From assembly GCA_938091905.1 (NCBI GenBank), contig CALKOM010000027.1, forward strand, positions 1 to 60,309: 60,309 nucleotides of DNA, read 5' to 3'. Under the pieces are notes generated by a model. It was given only the letters and a program-made list of their open reading frames with translations. It searched no databases and had not been told where the DNA came from. The translations under genes and the position numbers were made by a program. Below, piece by piece: positions 53,202 to 60,223 of this stretch (positions are counted from its first letter, which is position 1; each line of letters opens with the position of its first letter). The stretch comes from an uncultured Verrucomicrobiales bacterium (GTDB lineage: Bacteria; Verrucomicrobiota; Verrucomicrobiia; Verrucomicrobiales; DEV007).

Positions 53202-54692
53202 CTATGCCAGGACGTCCTCAATGACATGCCCGTGCACATTGGTTAGGCGGCGTTCAAGACCATTGTGGTAATAGCTCAGCCGCTCATGGTCGAGCCCCAT
53301 GAGATGGAGAATCGTGGCGTTGAAATCATAAATCTCAACAGGATCGACAGCTGTCTTGAATCCAAACTCATCGCTCTCACCAAAGCTGAACCCCTTCTTC
53401 ACCCCAGCGCCGGCGAGAATACAAGTAAAGGCGTCAGGATTGTGATCACGCCCCGTGCCGTTGCCTTGAAGGAAAGGCATGCGTCCGAACTCGCTGCACC
53501 AGACAACAAGCGTATCTTCTAACAAACCGCGACGTTTCATGTCGCGAATCATGGCGGCGGTAGGGTGGTCCATGATCTCAGCCTGCATGGCATGCGTGTC
53601 TAGAATATTGGAATGTGAGTCCCAGTTCGTGATCCCATTTCCCCCAGCAGGATCACTGCCATTGAAGAGCTGAACAACCCGTACACCTTTCTCGATTAGA
53701 CGGCGAGCGAGTATGCAGTTCTTCGCATACTCGCGTTTCAACTCGGTCCCCGTATCCGTGCCATATTCCTTATGAATCGACTCCGGCTCTCCGGACATAT
53801 CCATCATGTCTGGAACTGAGGTCTGCATCTGCCCCGCCAGCTCGTAGCTCGCAATGCGGGCAGCCAGGTCAGCGTCGCCAGGATACTGTTCGAGATGTCT
53901 AGCGTTCAGCCGCTTGAGGAGATCAACCGTCTTCTTATCATCAGAAGCCGTAAGACTCTGCGGGCGACGCAGATTGGCAGGAGGATTCTTGGCGTTGAAA
54001 TCGGTTCCCTGAAAGGCTGCAGGCAAGAAGCCATTCCCAAAGTTGTTCTTTCCGGATCGAGCAAGTCCACGTGGATCATTGATCGCCACAAAGGCGGGGA
54101 GATCGTGACACTCCGATCCTAGGGCATAGGTGACCCAAGCCCCAAACGATGGAAAGCCTTCCATCGTAAAGCCCGTGTTAAAGAAATTCTCACCCTGGGG
54201 ATGCGCACTCGTCTGTGTGTGAAGCGAGTGGATGAAACAAAAGTCATCCGCCAACGCGCCCATGTTAGGAAGGAGTTCGGACGTCATCTTACCGCTTTCG
54301 CCGCGCGGTTTGAACTCCCAGAAGGGTTTCGCGATATTGCCCGTTGGCCCCTCAAACGTCACGGCAGGTACACCAGGAGGCTTTTGACCGTGATACTTGG
54401 TTAGGGCAGGTTTGTAATCAAAGGTATCCACATGACTGGGCGCACCGGGGCAGTAGATGACGAGCACTTGCTTCGCAGCTCCGGCGAAATGGCTTCCTCG
54501 GGGCGTATACGGATTGTCGGCATCGATGCTAGGCCGAATGGGCTGCTTGCCGCTAAACGCCGCCGGATCGTCCTCCGCAGCCAACAACTGCGCTAGACCA
54601 AGCCCACCAAGCGTGAGACCGCTGTTGCGCATGAAATTCCTGCGATTGAGTAGCTGGCGCCCTCGAGGGGTCAAATGTTCTGGCTGAATCAT
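53202..54692 (-). CDS. DUF1501 family protein (Tat-exported)
   Basis: NRRNF twin-arginine motif, PSHVDTFDYKP, ARRLIEKGVR, WDSH, SEFGRMP and GRDHN. Confidence 0.9.
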   Translation of the reverse strand: MIQPEHLTPRGRQLLNRRNFMRNSGLTLGGLGLAQLLAAEDDPAAFSGKQPIRPSIDADNPYTPRGSHFAGAAKQVLVIYCPGAPSHVDTFDYKPALTKYHGQKPPGVPAVTFEGPTGNIAKPFWEFKPRGESGKMTSELLPNMGALADDFCFIHSLHTQTSAHPQGENFFNTGFTMEGFPSFGAWVTYALGSECHDLPAFVAINDPRGLARSGKNNFGNGFLPAAFQGTDFNAKNPPANLRRPQSLTASDDKKTVDLLKRLNARHLEQYPGDADLAARIASYELAGQMQTSVPDMMDMSGEPESIHKEYGTDTGTELKREYAKNCILARRLIEKGVRVVQLFNGSDPAGGNGITNWDSHSNILDTHAMQAEIMDHPTAAMIRDMKRRGLLEDTLVVWCSEFGRMPFLQGNGTGRDHNPDAFTCILAGAGVKKGFSFGESDEFGFKTAVDPVEIYDFNATILHLMGLDHERLSYYHNGLERRLTNVHGHVIEDVLA

Positions 54693-54720
54693 AAGGTTAG
54701 AAAGCAAAGGTGAATAAAGT

Positions 54721-54863
54721 CTCACGCAGAGACGCAGAGACGCAGAGACGCAGAGGGGGTGTTATTCTATGCCCGTTGAGCAATCGATGAGCGTCTGGCC
54801 ACGACCAAGCCCTATCACAGATAGCTTGTTTAGAAACTCTGCGTCTCTGCGTATCTGCGTGAG
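54721..54863. mobile_element. Short non-autonomous element with inverted (ACGCAGAG)n ends
   Basis: CTC(ACGCAGAG)x4 at 54721-54755 and an inverted x3 copy with one mismatch at 54837-54863; 81-nt interior. The ends match those of the GxxExxY element. Confidence 0.7.
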
Positions 54864-54866
54864 CAT

Positions 54867-56486
54867 TCATTTCTTCAGGATCTCGCTGAGTTCCGCCGTG
54901 AGTTTCGCGACGACATCAGGATGAGAACTAGCGACGTTAATAGTTTCCGTGGGATCTTTCTCGTGATCAAAAAGTTCGGTGAAGATCGGATTCGATGCGG
55001 AATCCCGATGATCGCGCCACACCACGAGACGATAGCGATTCGAACGCAGGGTGTACCCCGTCAGATGATTCTCAAAGAGATCCCGGTCCCAAACATCCCC
55101 CTGTTGCTTGATGATCTTGGCTTCCACATCCTTGATCAACGGGCCAAAAAAGGTCTCGCGCATTGCCGGTGAGAGAGGATTCGCAGCCCACTCGCGCAGG
55201 GCTGGATTGGGAAACTGACTGATCGCCGCCTTCTTCATCTCAAATTCCGGATCATCCAAGATAGGCGCAAAGCTACGGCCCTCAATATGCTTGGGCTTGG
55301 GAAGCCCTGCAAGATCACACAGCGCTGGATAAATGTCGAGTAGCTCTACCAGCCCTTTGCTACTCTTGCCTTTAGCTTTCATGTTAGGAGTCGACGCGAT
55401 CAACGGCACGCGTGTGGCGATCTCGTAGTTCGTCGCTTTTCCCCAAATGCCCATCTCACCGAGATGCCAGCCATGGTCGCCCCAAACAATGATGAGGGTA
55501 TTGTCACTGATACCGGTTTCCGCAAGGGTGCTGATAAGCTTGCCAATCTGGGCATCCACATAACTAACACTCGCATAATAGGCGTGAAGCAAAGTGCGGG
55601 CCAACTCCTCATCAAGCGGGCCATACTTTGGAATGCCAGCCCGCGTGCGCAGCTCGAAGGAAGCATGCAGCCCCATCGCTGCGCCAACTTTCGGGCCATC
55701 GATTTGGTTCGCTAGCTGGATCTTGTCACGATCATACATGTCCCAATACTTCTTTGGCGCGATCCAGTTGAGATGTGGAAGCTTGTAGCCCATTGCCAAG
55801 AAGATCGGCTTATCAACCTGGTCGCTCGTCATTTGCTTGAGCGTGGCCATGGCCAACTCAGTATTGTAGCCATCGATGTAACGATGATCCGGAACATCGG
55901 CATTCTCGTAGGCGGGCCCACTACCCAATCCGCGCTTGGCCGCTTCGCCATACTTTTCAAACATCGCCTTGAAGTTGTCATTACGCAGCTTCTGATTCTC
56001 TGCCAGAGCGTAGGGCGATTTAGGCCTGGGCACCCTGACTAGCTTGTGCGCCGGTTTGCGAGTCCAAGACTCCGGCGAGTGCTCAGGACGATGATAGATC
56101 TTGCCACAGAAGACCGTTTCGTAGCCATGGTTGGCAAAGTGATTGGGAAGCGTCGTCAGGCTTTTGTCTACAGCAGTGAAATCGATGTAGTTGTGCGTCA
56201 GTCCATTGGTATCCGGTCGCGTGCCCGTCATCAGACTCGCACGCGAGGGAGAGCAGATGGCCTCCTGACAATAAGCCCGATCGAAACGCATCCCTTGCGC
56301 TGCAAGCGCATCGAGATTTGGCGACTTCACCGCTGGCGAGCCGTAGCAGCCAAGTTCTGGCCTCAGATCATCGATGGCTATAAAGAGGATATTCGGTTTG
56401 TCGGCAGCGTGAGCGCCGCAGCAAATGAATAAAAGGCTCACGCAGAGACGCAGAGACGCAGAGGATTTTGATAACGAGTGGTTCAT
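54867..56486 (-). CDS. Sulfatase, iduronate-2-sulfatase-like
   Basis: KPNILFIAIDDLRP, CSPSR, GKIYH and GDHGWHLGE...WGK. Confidence 0.92.
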   Translation of the reverse strand: MNHSLSKSSASLRLCVSLLFICCGAHAADKPNILFIAIDDLRPELGCYGSPAVKSPNLDALAAQGMRFDRAYCQEAICSPSRASLMTGTRPDTNGLTHNYIDFTAVDKSLTTLPNHFANHGYETVFCGKIYHRPEHSPESWTRKPAHKLVRVPRPKSPYALAENQKLRNDNFKAMFEKYGEAAKRGLGSGPAYENADVPDHRYIDGYNTELAMATLKQMTSDQVDKPIFLAMGYKLPHLNWIAPKKYWDMYDRDKIQLANQIDGPKVGAAMGLHASFELRTRAGIPKYGPLDEELARTLLHAYYASVSYVDAQIGKLISTLAETGISDNTLIIVWGDHGWHLGEMGIWGKATNYEIATRVPLIASTPNMKAKGKSSKGLVELLDIYPALCDLAGLPKPKHIEGRSFAPILDDPEFEMKKAAISQFPNPALREWAANPLSPAMRETFFGPLIKDVEAKIIKQQGDVWDRDLFENHLTGYTLRSNRYRLVVWRDHRDSASNPIFTELFDHEKDPTETINVASSHPDVVAKLTAELSEILKK

Positions 56487-56903
56487 TCTGGAAGATCGTT
56501 GACGATGCGGTGGAGCCCCTCTTTCAGCAAGGGTGCTCCGAAATTGATGAGAAGGCCTAACTGGATTTTGGAGAGCTTCAAATAGGTAAAAACTTGTTTC
56601 TTGTGGAAAGGTTGCACCGACTCAAGTGACTTCAGCTCTATCAGAACCTTTCCATCCACGATAATGTCAGCACAAAAGCTCTCGTCGATGATATGACCGT
56701 CCCATTCTACAGGGATAGCCACCTCAGTCTTTACCTCTAAACCGGCTTTTCGTAACTCATAGGCCAAGATTCGCTGATACACCGACTCAAGCAATCCAGG
56801 GGCCAAAACCGTATGCACATTCACCGCCCGATCAACGATCAGCCCCGAGATTTCATTGGGTTCCGCACAAGAATCTCTGCGTCTCTGCGTCTCTGCGTGA
56901 GCC
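56435..56903. mobile_element. GxxExxY element bounded by perfect 29-bp inverted repeats
   Basis: GGCTC(ACGCAGAG)x3 at 56435-56463 and its exact reverse complement at 56875-56903 enclose the nuclease gene. Confidence 0.75.
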
Positions 56904-56917
56904 ATCTTCATCATCAC
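56483..56917 (-). CDS. GxxExxY protein (PD-(D/E)XK nuclease fold)
   Basis: PGLLESVY, ADIIV...IELKS, QVFTYL and GLLINFG. Confidence 0.92.
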   Translation of the reverse strand: MMMKMAHAETQRRRDSCAEPNEISGLIVDRAVNVHTVLAPGLLESVYQRILAYELRKAGLEVKTEVAIPVEWDGHIIDESFCADIIVDGKVLIELKSLESVQPFHKKQVFTYLKLSKIQLGLLINFGAPLLKEGLHRIVNDLPE

Positions 56918-59646
56918 GGCAGAAAGGCAAACTCGTTAGAATTCATCAGGCTGCGACAAACAAGCTCGAGTTCCGTGTCTTCACAGGCTGCAAGTTCATC
57001 CGCAACGGGTGCCCGTCCGAGCAGTAGCTGGAAGGCTCGAGTGACAGGGTCCGCGCTGCCCTCCGCCCGCGCACGCTCAGCGATAAACTTTGCTTGCTCA
57101 ATAACAAAGTCGCTATTCATGAGATTCAATGCCTGCAAGGGCGTGGTCGAAACAGGCCGCTTTGCCCGTACCTGACCACAATCAGGGAAATCGAAGGCTG
57201 TGAACATCTTATCATCAACCCGACGATAGCGTTCTTGATAGAGCATGCGTCTCCACGTATTGGGACCATGGTTATTGACGACCTCCCACTGCGCGTAGGT
57301 CTTTTTCACATTGTGAATCCGATAACTAGGACCACCAATGCGACGATCCAGCTTATCCGAGGCCTGAAGGATCCCATCGCGAATGACTTCAGCTTCCATC
57401 CGGCGAGGCGGATAGCGCCAGAGCAATGCTGAACCGGCGTCTGCCCGCAACGCTACCTCAGATGGGTGGCTGGCCCGACGAAACGCATCGGTCATCACAA
57501 GCCTTCGAACCATGCCCTTCATGGACCAAGGAGTCCCCTCGGCACCACTCGGCTCAACAAACTCAGCAGCTAGCCAATCAAGTAGTTCGGGGTGAGTCGG
57601 CATCGCTCCTGCCAAGCCGAAGTCACTGCTCGTAGGTACGATGCCTGCACCGAAGACATGATGCCAAAGGCGGTTTACAATCACGCGGGCAGTGAGTGGA
57701 TGGCCAGGATCGGTGAGCCATTCCGCAAATTGCAGGCGGCGTTTTGCATCAGGCGCGTTTGATTCGAGTCCGAGGTCGCCTTTCAAGATATCGAAGCCAG
57801 CGGGAGCCACTTCATCCCGTGGATTCTCAGGACTCCCGCGATGCAATATATGGGTAACTCCTGGTTGCTTGAATTGGCCTACAAAGCTATGCCGCGGCCC
57901 TTCCTCTTTCAGTTTAGCAATCTGTTCATGGAGCCTAGCAGACGCCCTCTTCATCGCCGGCTTCTGATTTAAGTTCTTTCGGGCCTGTTGGCTGTTTCCG
58001 ACCTCCTTCCAACTCCCATCTGACTGCATCGTAGAGATTCGCACGGCGGGAAAAGTGCCAGACGGCATCTTCTCCAAATAGTCTGTTTCGAAGTAGTACT
58101 CCCGATTACTGCTGAACCGAAATCGACTGACCTCGTGAGGCTCTTTGAAGTGAACCTCAACCCACGGTTTCACCTTGCTGCCTTCCGGCGCGCGAGACTT
58201 CCACGTCATGGTACCGTAGATGCCATCGTTCGCATTCTTCAGGTCACCTCGAAGTTGCGTCATGCTAGGATTGGTGACAAGCGATGCACCATTCGAAGCA
58301 AGGGCCACGTTTCGATAGTAATCATCTGGGCCAAAGAGCTCTAGCTCATCCACAAAGGCAGCCTTATTCTGAAACTCGATGCGCACCGCATTGGTCGTCG
58401 TGGCAGGGAACTGCACTTCGGCAAAGCCACCCCAATTCTCTTCCCACACGCCGAGAAACTTCCGCAGCGTGGCCCGTTCTTTGAACATCTTAGCCCCAAT
58501 AACTTGAGCGCGCTCTCTACGAGGATGATCTGCAGAGAATTCAGGAACCCGCCCGCCAAACTCGACGCCCTGAAAGACCGCTGTGAGTGCATAGTAGTCC
58601 TTGATCGAGATGGGATCGAACTTGTGATTATGACAGCGCGCGCAACCTACCGTGACCCCAAGCATGGATGCTCCCACCGTTTGCATGATCTCATCCATAC
58701 GATCCGCGCGCGCCTGGCGAATGGCTGTCTCCTCCTGGCCAACCGTAGCCGCAGGCACATGCGGTCCGGCCACGAGAAAGCCCGTGGCGTCACCACAGCC
58801 TAACTGATCCCCTGCCAGCTGCTCCCTGACAAAGCGATCGTAAGGAAGATCCTCATTGAACGCACGAATGACATAGTCGCGATAGATCCAGGCGTTCTTG
58901 CGATAGAGATTTGACTCGGAGCCATTCGTTTCGGCCCAACGAATCACATCGAGCCAATGTTGCGCCCAGCGTTCACCAAAGTGTTTGGACACAAGCAGTT
59001 CGTCCACCAGCTCTGCGTAAGCAGCGTCTGAATCCTGTGCACACGTTTCCTCAAAAGTCGCCACGCGTTCAGGCGTCGGAGGCAAGCCTGTCAATACAAT
59101 CGAGACGCGACGAATCAAGGATCGCGCATCGGCTGGTCCGTTCGCCTCAATCCCAACGTCCTTCAGCTCTGCGATGAGAAACGCATCCACCGGCTTGTTA
59201 GCACCACTCGGAACAGCCGGTCGGATCACCGATTGGAACGACCAGTGGTCTGTGGTGACCTCAGCTACTTCGTCCATCTGGCCAGGCCATTCAGCTCCGC
59301 CCTCGATCCACTTCACCAATAGGGCAATCTGGTCACTTGTCAGCGGTTCACCCTTTGGCGGCATGATTTCATCTGGATCTGTTCCTTTGACGAGATCGAT
59401 CAAGTGGCTCTTCGTCGGATCACCAGGCACGATGCTAGGCATACCACTATCCCCACCCCTTACCAAGAGCGCCCGCTTGTCGACACGGAGCTTTGACTTC
59501 TGCTTGTCAGGGCCATGGCAGTCGAGGCAATTCTCTTCAAGGATCAGCCTAATTTCCGTCTCATAGTCGGCCGCGCGAGAAGACCAGGGAAGGACGTAGG
59601 TGTACAGGAAACAGGCACCGAGTAAACGGCAGAAGGTAGGTCTCAT
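56914..59646 (-). CDS. Planctomycete cytochrome c / DUF1549 / DUF1553 protein
   Basis: CLDCH...MPP, HWSF, WLDVIRWAE, CARCHNHKFDPI, PLTARVIVNRLW, THPELLDWLA and QALNLMN. Confidence 0.92.
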   Translation of the reverse strand: MRPTFCRLLGACFLYTYVLPWSSRAADYETEIRLILEENCLDCHGPDKQKSKLRVDKRALLVRGGDSGMPSIVPGDPTKSHLIDLVKGTDPDEIMPPKGEPLTSDQIALLVKWIEGGAEWPGQMDEVAEVTTDHWSFQSVIRPAVPSGANKPVDAFLIAELKDVGIEANGPADARSLIRRVSIVLTGLPPTPERVATFEETCAQDSDAAYAELVDELLVSKHFGERWAQHWLDVIRWAETNGSESNLYRKNAWIYRDYVIRAFNEDLPYDRFVREQLAGDQLGCGDATGFLVAGPHVPAATVGQEETAIRQARADRMDEIMQTVGASMLGVTVGCARCHNHKFDPISIKDYYALTAVFQGVEFGGRVPEFSADHPRRERAQVIGAKMFKERATLRKFLGVWEENWGGFAEVQFPATTTNAVRIEFQNKAAFVDELELFGPDDYYRNVALASNGASLVTNPSMTQLRGDLKNANDGIYGTMTWKSRAPEGSKVKPWVEVHFKEPHEVSRFRFSSNREYYFETDYLEKMPSGTFPAVRISTMQSDGSWKEVGNSQQARKNLNQKPAMKRASARLHEQIAKLKEEGPRHSFVGQFKQPGVTHILHRGSPENPRDEVAPAGFDILKGDLGLESNAPDAKRRLQFAEWLTDPGHPLTARVIVNRLWHHVFGAGIVPTSSDFGLAGAMPTHPELLDWLAAEFVEPSGAEGTPWSMKGMVRRLVMTDAFRRASHPSEVALRADAGSALLWRYPPRRMEAEVIRDGILQASDKLDRRIGGPSYRIHNVKKTYAQWEVVNNHGPNTWRRMLYQERYRRVDDKMFTAFDFPDCGQVRAKRPVSTTPLQALNLMNSDFVIEQAKFIAERARAEGSADPVTRAFQLLLGRAPVADELAACEDTELELVCRSLMNSNEFAFLP

Positions 59647-59818: not shown

Positions 59819-60223
59819 ATGGCTAAGAAGAAACAGATTCGTGATGGGCAAGATGGTGCCCTCACGCGGAGAGAAAACCAGGTCATGGATATTGTTTACG
59901 CAGGACGAGCGGCATCAGAGAGAGACATTCATGAAAAGTTGGCGGACCCTCCCACTTACTCTACCGTTCGCACTCTCTTGGGAGTGCTAGAGCGCAAAGG
60001 CCATTTGCTTCGACAAAAGGACGGAAGACGATTCGTCTACACAGCGCGATGGCAACGGGAGAAAGCCGCCGACTCCGCTCTTCGCCGAATTGTAGAGACC
60101 TTCTTCGATGGTTCCGTAGGACAAGCGGTCTCCGGTCTCTTGAACATGAAGGACCAAGAACTCGGCTCCGAAGACATCGCGCGAATTGAACGAAAAATCG
60201 AGGAGGCGAAACGCAACCGATGA
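59819..60223 (+). CDS. BlaI/MecI/CopY-family transcriptional repressor
   Basis: LTRRENQVMDIVY, YSTVRTLL..LERKG, GRRFVY and FFDGS. Confidence 0.92.
   Translation: MAKKKQIRDGQDGALTRRENQVMDIVYAGRAASERDIHEKLADPPTYSTVRTLLGVLERKGHLLRQKDGRRFVYTARWQREKAADSALRRIVETFFDGSVGQAVSGLLNMKDQELGSEDIARIERKIEEAKRNR

Follow-up and report, generated by a model that had tools for sequence, protein, structure and literature searches.

A GxxExxY nuclease gene between inverted tandem-word arms in a Verrucomicrobiales operon: a candidate slow-moving cassette

The DNA analyzed here, referred to throughout as the window, is a 60,309-nt stretch, contig CALKOM010000027.1 of assembly GCA_938091905.1, from an uncultured Verrucomicrobiales bacterium; position numbers count from its first letter. 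Its minus strand carries an operon in which a DUF1549/DUF1553 gene is followed by a GxxExxY gene, a sulfatase gene and a DUF1501 gene. The GxxExxY gene (56483..56917, minus strand) encodes a 144-amino-acid (aa) predicted minimal PD-(D/E)XK nuclease in which the motif residues are present, and together with two inverted repeat arms it forms the cassette (56435-56917) that is the subject of this analysis. The right arm, 56435-56463, consists of GGCTC followed by three copies of ACGCAGAG and is the exact reverse complement of 56875-56903, a 29-bp match that a first-pass annotation made from the sequence alone had already reported. Once mismatches are allowed, the arms reach 36 nt at 92%. Among the 23 perfect inverted repeats of at least 20 bp, within 1 kb, in this 6.19-Mb genome, the pair ranks second longest. 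The earlier description of the arms as a microsatellite is apt insofar as the number of units varies, but not for the fixed head (TCAC) and for the word, which is conserved across phyla.

Both arms are read through by coding sequence. The left (5') arm (56875..56903, minus strand), a GGC-TCAC head with three 8-nt units, starts 10 nt past the stop codon of the upstream DUF1549/DUF1553 planctomycete-cytochrome-c gene (56914..59646, minus strand) and is translated in the nuclease frame as the N-terminal AHAETQRRRD. The GTG start of the nuclease gene overlaps the upstream stop (GTGA), and its own stop overlaps the ATG of the sulfatase gene (ATGA); the post-arm ATG that relatives use as the nuclease start is absent here and in the relative genome G003. 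The right (3') arm (56435..56463, minus strand) lies within the sulfatase gene (54867..56486, minus strand), the 5' end of which comes from the cassette end, and codes for SASLRLCVS of the sulfatase's predicted signal peptide, as judged by eye from the sequence. This frame is shared by the sulfatases of 13 relatives, this one counted (G003 and G020 among them, and G062 as judged from its peptide), and another frame occurs in one (G070). The 8-nt unit is free of stop codons in every frame, and TGA is present only at the outer end of a right arm, in one frame. The cassette leaves its flanking genes whole, through overlapping starts and stops and through arms that are translated as protein. The first-pass annotation had placed the gene between the arms: the intact open reading frame (ORF) is indeed there, but its first codons cross the left arm, and the right arm belongs to the sulfatase gene. 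The reading frames through both arms, the signal peptide and a gene-less sister pair 1.6 kb away had been overlooked. No direct repeat of at least 3 nt, offset within 5 nt, was found at the outer ends of the cassette, in agreement with that annotation, although age could have erased one.

The protein matches TIGR04256 at 131.6 bits (cut-off 35) and, over residues 22-138, PF13366 at 127.7 bits (cut-off 22); no other family was matched. The family is very large, with 7998 of 8000 scored candidates passing E 1e-10. Motifs in the protein are G41-x-x-E44-x-x-Y47, D84, E94-x-K96 and Q108-x-x-x-Y112, the last of which, a conserved QxxxY following ExK, is the motif of the RecB/Cas4 type. Across 137 sequences, G41, E44 and Y47 are invariant and the catalytic-type residues are 90-100% conserved (D84, E94 and K96 at at least 90%), with no HUH motif among the conserved columns. 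The predicted structure has a predicted local distance difference test (pLDDT) score of 94 and matches restriction-endonuclease-like and Cas4 chains at Z 7-8, including Cas4 SSO0001 (Z 7.8, root-mean-square deviation 4.5, 101 residues aligned). No sequence relatives with a solved structure were found, nor Atlas look-alikes outside PF13366; PADLOC gave no match to a defence system, and PHROGs returned a weak Cas-associated family for one homologue alone (E 0.005). The nuclease is thus a member of the GxxExxY family with a modeled PD-(D/E)XK core fold, which is the fold the first-pass annotation had named. In the available part of PMC3424549, PF13366 is given the function 'Unknown' and the remark 'multiple transfers, mixed clades'.

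The association of gene and arms is not confined to this locus. An inverted-flank score of at least 28 is found at 77 of 102 loci of GxxExxY relatives, as opposed to 7 of 1000 control positions; the sample consists of 109 loci (79 relatives from one search and 30 from another), less seven dropped for short flanks. In a second sample, drawn with the family profile, 31 of 52 GxxExxY genes from 11 genomes have inverted flanks (48 of the 53 profile matches, five partial ones being excluded, plus four loci from this genome). Neighboring genes are mostly co-directional, upstream at 43 of 52 loci and downstream at 42 of 53, and at 26 of 43 the left arm starts between 57 nt before (-57) and 39 nt after (+39) the upstream stop, counts that rest on crude ORF calls, have no null and include kin that are not independent. 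In the 79-relative sample (L046-L124), the C-terminus of the GxxExxY protein itself reads across the right arm at 43 of 44 distant loci, mostly as SASPRLRVNQ, and a conserved ACCA lies directly outside that arm.

The repeat word differs between protein clades. Word groups CGCAGAG, CACGAAT, CAGGATT, CGCAGAT, CACGGAA and CACGAAG each cover several genomes. Across genomes, word similarity is 0.45 for proteins at least 60% identical (15 pairs) and 0.035 for those below 40% (265 pairs); for pairs within the same genome it is 0.019 (43 pairs). The Mantel rho between word and protein is 0.17, and none of 2000 shuffles was equally high. The word tracks the protein clade rather than the host genome, and this, with the flank counts, bears out the earlier proposal that gene and arms form one unit. 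Such tracking fits a predicted recognition of the word by the protein.

The junction at which the cassette resides has a varied history among relatives. The first gene of the operon is present in 59 of 134 family genomes, 58 loci of which were read, and the PSD1-sulfatase junction is represented by 33 copies (31, with G020 and G012 added), assigned to classes by eye. Seven of these hold a whole cassette (one broken, one split over contigs) and eight a remnant; six are occupied by other repeat families and one by an unrelated gene, and the 11 traceless junctions mostly show a simple stop/start overlap. In G061 and G069 the remnants still have 5' and 3' fragments of the gene enclosed by arms, so some gene-less palindromes, at least, arose by deletion. 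A trio of remnant, solo arm and empty junction is seen in G069, G083 and G074, with the left boundary at the upstream stop, and no target duplication is seen in this trio either. Homologues 55-72% identical occupy three other operon junctions (G108, G071, G146, G141) as well as unrelated loci, and a paralogous operon in G004 has a 31%-identical GxxExxY protein with a different word. The first-pass annotation had suggested looking for empty sites in related genomes; empty junctions do exist there, and close homologues are at different junctions. Junction state shows no clustering on the sulfatase tree (13 changes, 13.2 when shuffled) and is scattered on the PSD1 tree as well; the latter (FastTree) wrongly enters G129 as 'none', the junction of that genome lying beyond the contig, and the sulfatase tree is the one relied upon. 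A single clade for the six tested same-junction nuclease genes is weakly rejected (approximately unbiased test, p-AU 0.025). The simplest reading of the series would be an old insertion and many losses, plus occasional hops or replacements.

Other elements have also reached this junction. Unrelated tandem-word repeats (GCTAA-type, AATGAC-type and AGGGTACA-type) colonise it, several of them in the N-terminus of the sulfatase. Loci with such families are L205 (G007), L172 (G095), L182 (G060), L191 (G067) and L192 (G068), and further ones are L159, L160, L165, L173 and L178. The operon sulfatase is itself internally deleted in some relatives: only its two ends are left in L184 (G146), and the C-terminal end in L157 (G087).

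The copy in the window is old. Compared with G003, the nuclease gene has nonsynonymous and synonymous divergences (dN and dS) of 0.10 and 1.15, a dN/dS of about 0.09, and its neighbor genes have a dS of 1.3-1.9. The arms are identical at 29 of 29 positions on the left and 27 of 29 on the right, while synonymous sites differ at 59-69%. Both changes in the right arm alter amino acids, and the constraint on the arms thus acts on nucleotides. Judged from these divergences, the cassette is older than the split from G003, an old resident rather than a recent insertion. Recent insertion or strain-level polymorphism was considered and rejected, as only the filled site is seen in the three of three covering DNA runs (X13, X14 and X8, all 30 bins); a further run, X12, covered six of 30 bins and is uninformative, and the inter-arm joints that are listed have sides shorter than 30 nt and derive from repeats. 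Inversion of the gene within its arms was likewise discarded: the DNA runs contain no such joint, and 12 of 12 whole or partial genes at the operon loci read are on the operon strand. The runs that contain the locus are marine, and the names attached to close homologues suggest a host of Verrucomicrobiales type.

With the same unit found whole, decayed or absent at this and other junctions, 56435-56917 is probably, if by no wide measure of confidence, a slow-moving selfish arm-gene-arm cassette whose predicted nuclease would cut at its own arms. Read-through from the host operon, with translational coupling, would drive expression of the gene. Its product, a minimal Cas4/RecB-type nuclease, would bind the word array, most likely with the arms paired in single-stranded DNA and the gene looped out, and a cut near the arms would release a recombinogenic fragment or end, which host repair would now and then copy elsewhere, leaving no target duplication. 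Insertions that spare their neighbors would alone survive, and this is the proposed cause of the junction bias. Copies would then erode by breakage of the gene, internal deletion to a gene-less palindrome, reduction to a solo arm or clean loss. This reading also draws on the folding of the arms and the linker co-variation given below, with the pair folding strongly and single arms barely, and on the broken state of six of the eight GxxExxY loci in this genome. The first-pass annotation had proposed a selfish mobile unit: the behavior as a unit, the empty sites and the different junctions accord with this, but recent or active mobility does not accord with a dS of 1.15-1.9 against G003 and a site that is filled in every covering DNA run. 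More tentatively, and with less confidence than for this one locus, GxxExxY cassettes in general could be a large class of transposase-free mobile elements, in which a 125-residue Cas4-like nuclease cuts the element out of single-stranded DNA by means of its clade-specific word. If so, landing at stop/start junctions would be made silent for translation by arms without stop codons and by overlaps of start with stop codons, to the point of rebuilding a signal peptide.

Several observations weigh against the selfish-cassette reading. The nuclease genes at the same junction are mostly clustered (2 changes, 5.6 when shuffled, 0 of 500), and their divergence equals that of their neighbors (83% as against 83-85%, compared with G003), so that much of the pattern can be put down to long vertical residence and repeated loss. 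The empty sites may themselves have arisen by deletion, and losses following a single old insertion fit as well. Selfishness alone hardly accounts for strong purifying selection on a copy that has stayed in place; for gene and arms both to have been kept for so long, either re-invasion of the junction or a benefit to the host would seem to be needed. No empty, excised or inverted joint appears in the three covering DNA runs or in four RNA runs, the contigs of which drop rare forms, and near-identical copies at different loci were not seen. The co-variation of word and protein would also result from simple co-inheritance, kin are not independent, and the 79-locus sample leans to one subclade, that in which the C-terminus reads through the right arm. 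The fold matches of the nuclease model are middling, with a best Z of 8.1 and no Foldseek match at E 0.001. Finally, PD-(D/E)XK nucleases cannot by themselves join DNA.

It is possible, though unlikely, that the cassette is instead a domesticated nuclease-plus-site module, mobile once and since kept for a benefit to the host, such as cutting incoming or single-stranded DNA that bears the word and thereby tuning recombination, as SsnA does with NTS repeats; its spread would then be mostly a by-product. The long residence under purifying selection and a nuclease divergence that matches that of host genes both point in this direction, as do the retention of several distinct clades per genome and the precedent of Ssn/NTS, as described in the available part of PMC11893778. 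What tells against it is the state of the copies, since six of the eight GxxExxY loci in this genome are broken and just seven of the 33 junction copies retain the gene, together with the missing PADLOC match and the scarcity of potential targets. The repeat is low-copy, with 21 arrays in a scan allowing two mismatches 80 loose matches (32-39 in shuffles) and about six pairs. In this it is unlike REPs, with which the first-pass annotation had drawn an analogy.

Quite improbable is an RNA-level element comparable to a 23S rRNA intervening sequence (IVS) set in an mRNA, whose 29-36-bp arm stem would be cut by RNase III or by the protein, freeing the RNA of the gene or setting the stoichiometry of the operon. 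On the mRNA strand the paired arms form a long, strong stem (z -6.8; z -5.0 for the sister pair), while single arms as DNA fold at just -1.2 to -2.1 kcal/mol. The variable linker base changes in step in the two arms (29 of 44, with 19.1 expected), which suggests pairing or copying between them, and upstream genes are mostly co-directional, as noted above. A precedent is the Coxiella IVS, in which, according to the available part of PMC4990558, a 28-bp terminal stem around an ORF is cut by RNase III. Arm mismatches show no G·U bias on the mRNA strand (37 and 35 among 66 pairs; 20 and 18 among 55 cleaned pairs), and for this reason neither this account nor the RNA-stem version of the first-pass annotation is favored. 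Translation of both arms would also unwind the stem, a cut in the right arm would take away the sulfatase start, and a plain stem would not need a clade-specific tandem word. RNA splicing found no support either: four RNA runs contain no joint, and RNA-library contigs bridge both junctions unspliced, though at a depth of just 3-7 that could be DNA. An Rfam search of 54500-57200 gave no match to a known RNA family.

Least probable of all is passive cargo, in which the arms would be ends resembling those of miniature inverted-repeat transposable elements (MITEs) or repetitive extragenic palindromes (REPs), mobilised in trans, for example by this genome's RAYT-type tyrosine transposases, with the GxxExxY gene riding along: gene-less pairs do occur, two HUH-motif transposase-like genes with inverted repeats of their own are present and the nuclease fold is generally without joining activity, but the repeats at those genes bear no relation to the CGCAGAG word, which goes with the GxxExxY clade and not the genome, some gene-less pairs are demonstrably cassette deletion products and there is no target duplication.

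The gene-less sister pair (54713-54747 / 54837-54871) is built from the same repeat and occupies the next junction of the operon. Its left arm (54837..54871, minus strand) starts at the sulfatase stop codon, and its right arm (54713..54755, minus strand) precedes the DUF1501 gene (53202..54725, minus strand). Translation of that gene probably begins at the ATG at 54692, and the GTG called as its start, at 54725, falls in the sister arm. The stretch of this arm at 54724-54755 has four units in the window and is two units (16 nt) shorter in three of three covering DNA runs, which may be a strain or slippage variant or a difference of assembly. An origin of the spacer from a GxxExxY gene was tried and dropped, as nhmmer gave no match (11 of 62 junctions matched). 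Divergent from the operon, a BlaI/penicillinase-repressor gene (59819-60223 in the window) is a candidate regulator of the operon and hence of the cassette.

Elsewhere in this genome, the other GxxExxY copies are about 50% identical or less where measured. Broken cassettes at C207:22678-23107 (CACGAAT), C29:34580-35013 (CGCAGAG) and C20:3901-4240 (CACGGAA-type arms) each lie directly after an upstream stop. At C48:14304-14834, a broken GxxExxY gene is followed by a palindrome of another word whose right arm, here too, supplies the N-terminus of the protein encoded next, which appears to be exported. A divergent but intact GxxExxY-like clade found in three genomes (L004, which is C35:11701-12024, L234 and L244) has no arms and an altered catalytic region, and is possibly domesticated. 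More gene-less tandem-word palindromes are located at C118:480-622, C21:1193-1315, C140:10229-10293, C204:14286-14432 and C53:86377-86941, and at C53 arms with two further words lie within the pair, as a nested pile-up. Two HUH-motif tyrosine-transposase-like ORFs (C75:8667-9432 and C109:14683-15489) sit within their own palindromic inverted repeats and are probable REPtron/TIRtron elements with repeats unrelated to the CGCAGAG word. There is also one four-helix-bundle (TIGR02436) gene, at C148:12454-12777 (L207).

The arms give each GxxExxY clade a specific candidate substrate, and thereby make the function of an unknown-function family testable. If the cassette moves, it would be a mobile element whose sole enzyme is a PD-(D/E)XK nuclease and whose style of insertion spares operons, and if recognition of the word is real, the many word-specific clades would constitute a natural library of tiny sequence-specific nucleases. 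At this locus element ends have been recruited into protein N-termini, which makes them a source of signal-peptide turnover and of the odd SASLRLCV and TQRRRD peptides in annotations. What the locus itself contributes is a set of states of the unit at a single operon, from whole through broken, internally deleted and solo arm to empty or taken over by other repeat families, together with a dating, a wobble test and arms that are translated. No paper linking GxxExxY proteins to flanking repeats or mobility was found in a search that left subscription journals mostly uncovered and excluded supplements, so 'undescribed' is provisional.

Among known systems, the cassette would work much as Ssn/NTS and RAYT/REP do and has the build of an IVS, yet it lacks a defining feature of each. 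In Ssn/NTS (Chenal et al. 2025, PMC11893778), a small nuclease gene of one domain has its own repeat on either side. The cassette is similar in being a small nuclease gene between cognate repeats, with a clade-specific repeat, gene-less copies and no classical transposase. However, Ssn is a GIY-YIG protein (cd10448), whereas the cassette protein is PD-(D/E)XK and matches PF13366 along its full length. Each NTS repeat forms a hairpin by itself and is often present in hundreds of copies; the cassette arms are low-copy and consist of 7-nt words in tandem, spaced at 8-10 nt, with little folding of a single arm. Activity is demonstrated for Ssn and is a prediction for the cassette protein. The RAYT/REPIN, REPtron and TIRtron elements (PMC3337134, PMC3733652) also place a gene of about 500 bp within inverted repeats of an enzyme-specific type, and RAYT/REP systems share the presence of several distinct enzymes per genome, long persistence and gene-less doublets. 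RAYT and TIRYT proteins, however, have the HUH and tyrosine motifs of IS200/IS605 transposases rather than PF13366, and the cassette arms, unlike REPs, are not palindromic and are often translated, with few gene-less doublets. The Coxiella 23S rRNA IVS (PMC4990558) resembles the cassette in its length of about 430-470 nt and in a 28-29-bp terminal stem around one small ORF, and is likewise sporadic and tolerated by the host RNA. The cassette differs in lying within an mRNA operon between protein genes, in encoding a nuclease fold and not a four-helix bundle, and in showing no sign of RNA excision. The features of classical insertion sequences or MITEs are missing, as there is no target duplication and no DDE transposase is encoded.

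Like homing endonuclease genes, which cycle between whole, degenerate and empty alleles of a given site and are scattered over the host tree, the cassette occurs in all three states at one junction. The cassette differs from them in having no intron or intein, in occupying many unrelated junctions and in a specificity that follows its own arms and not a conserved target.

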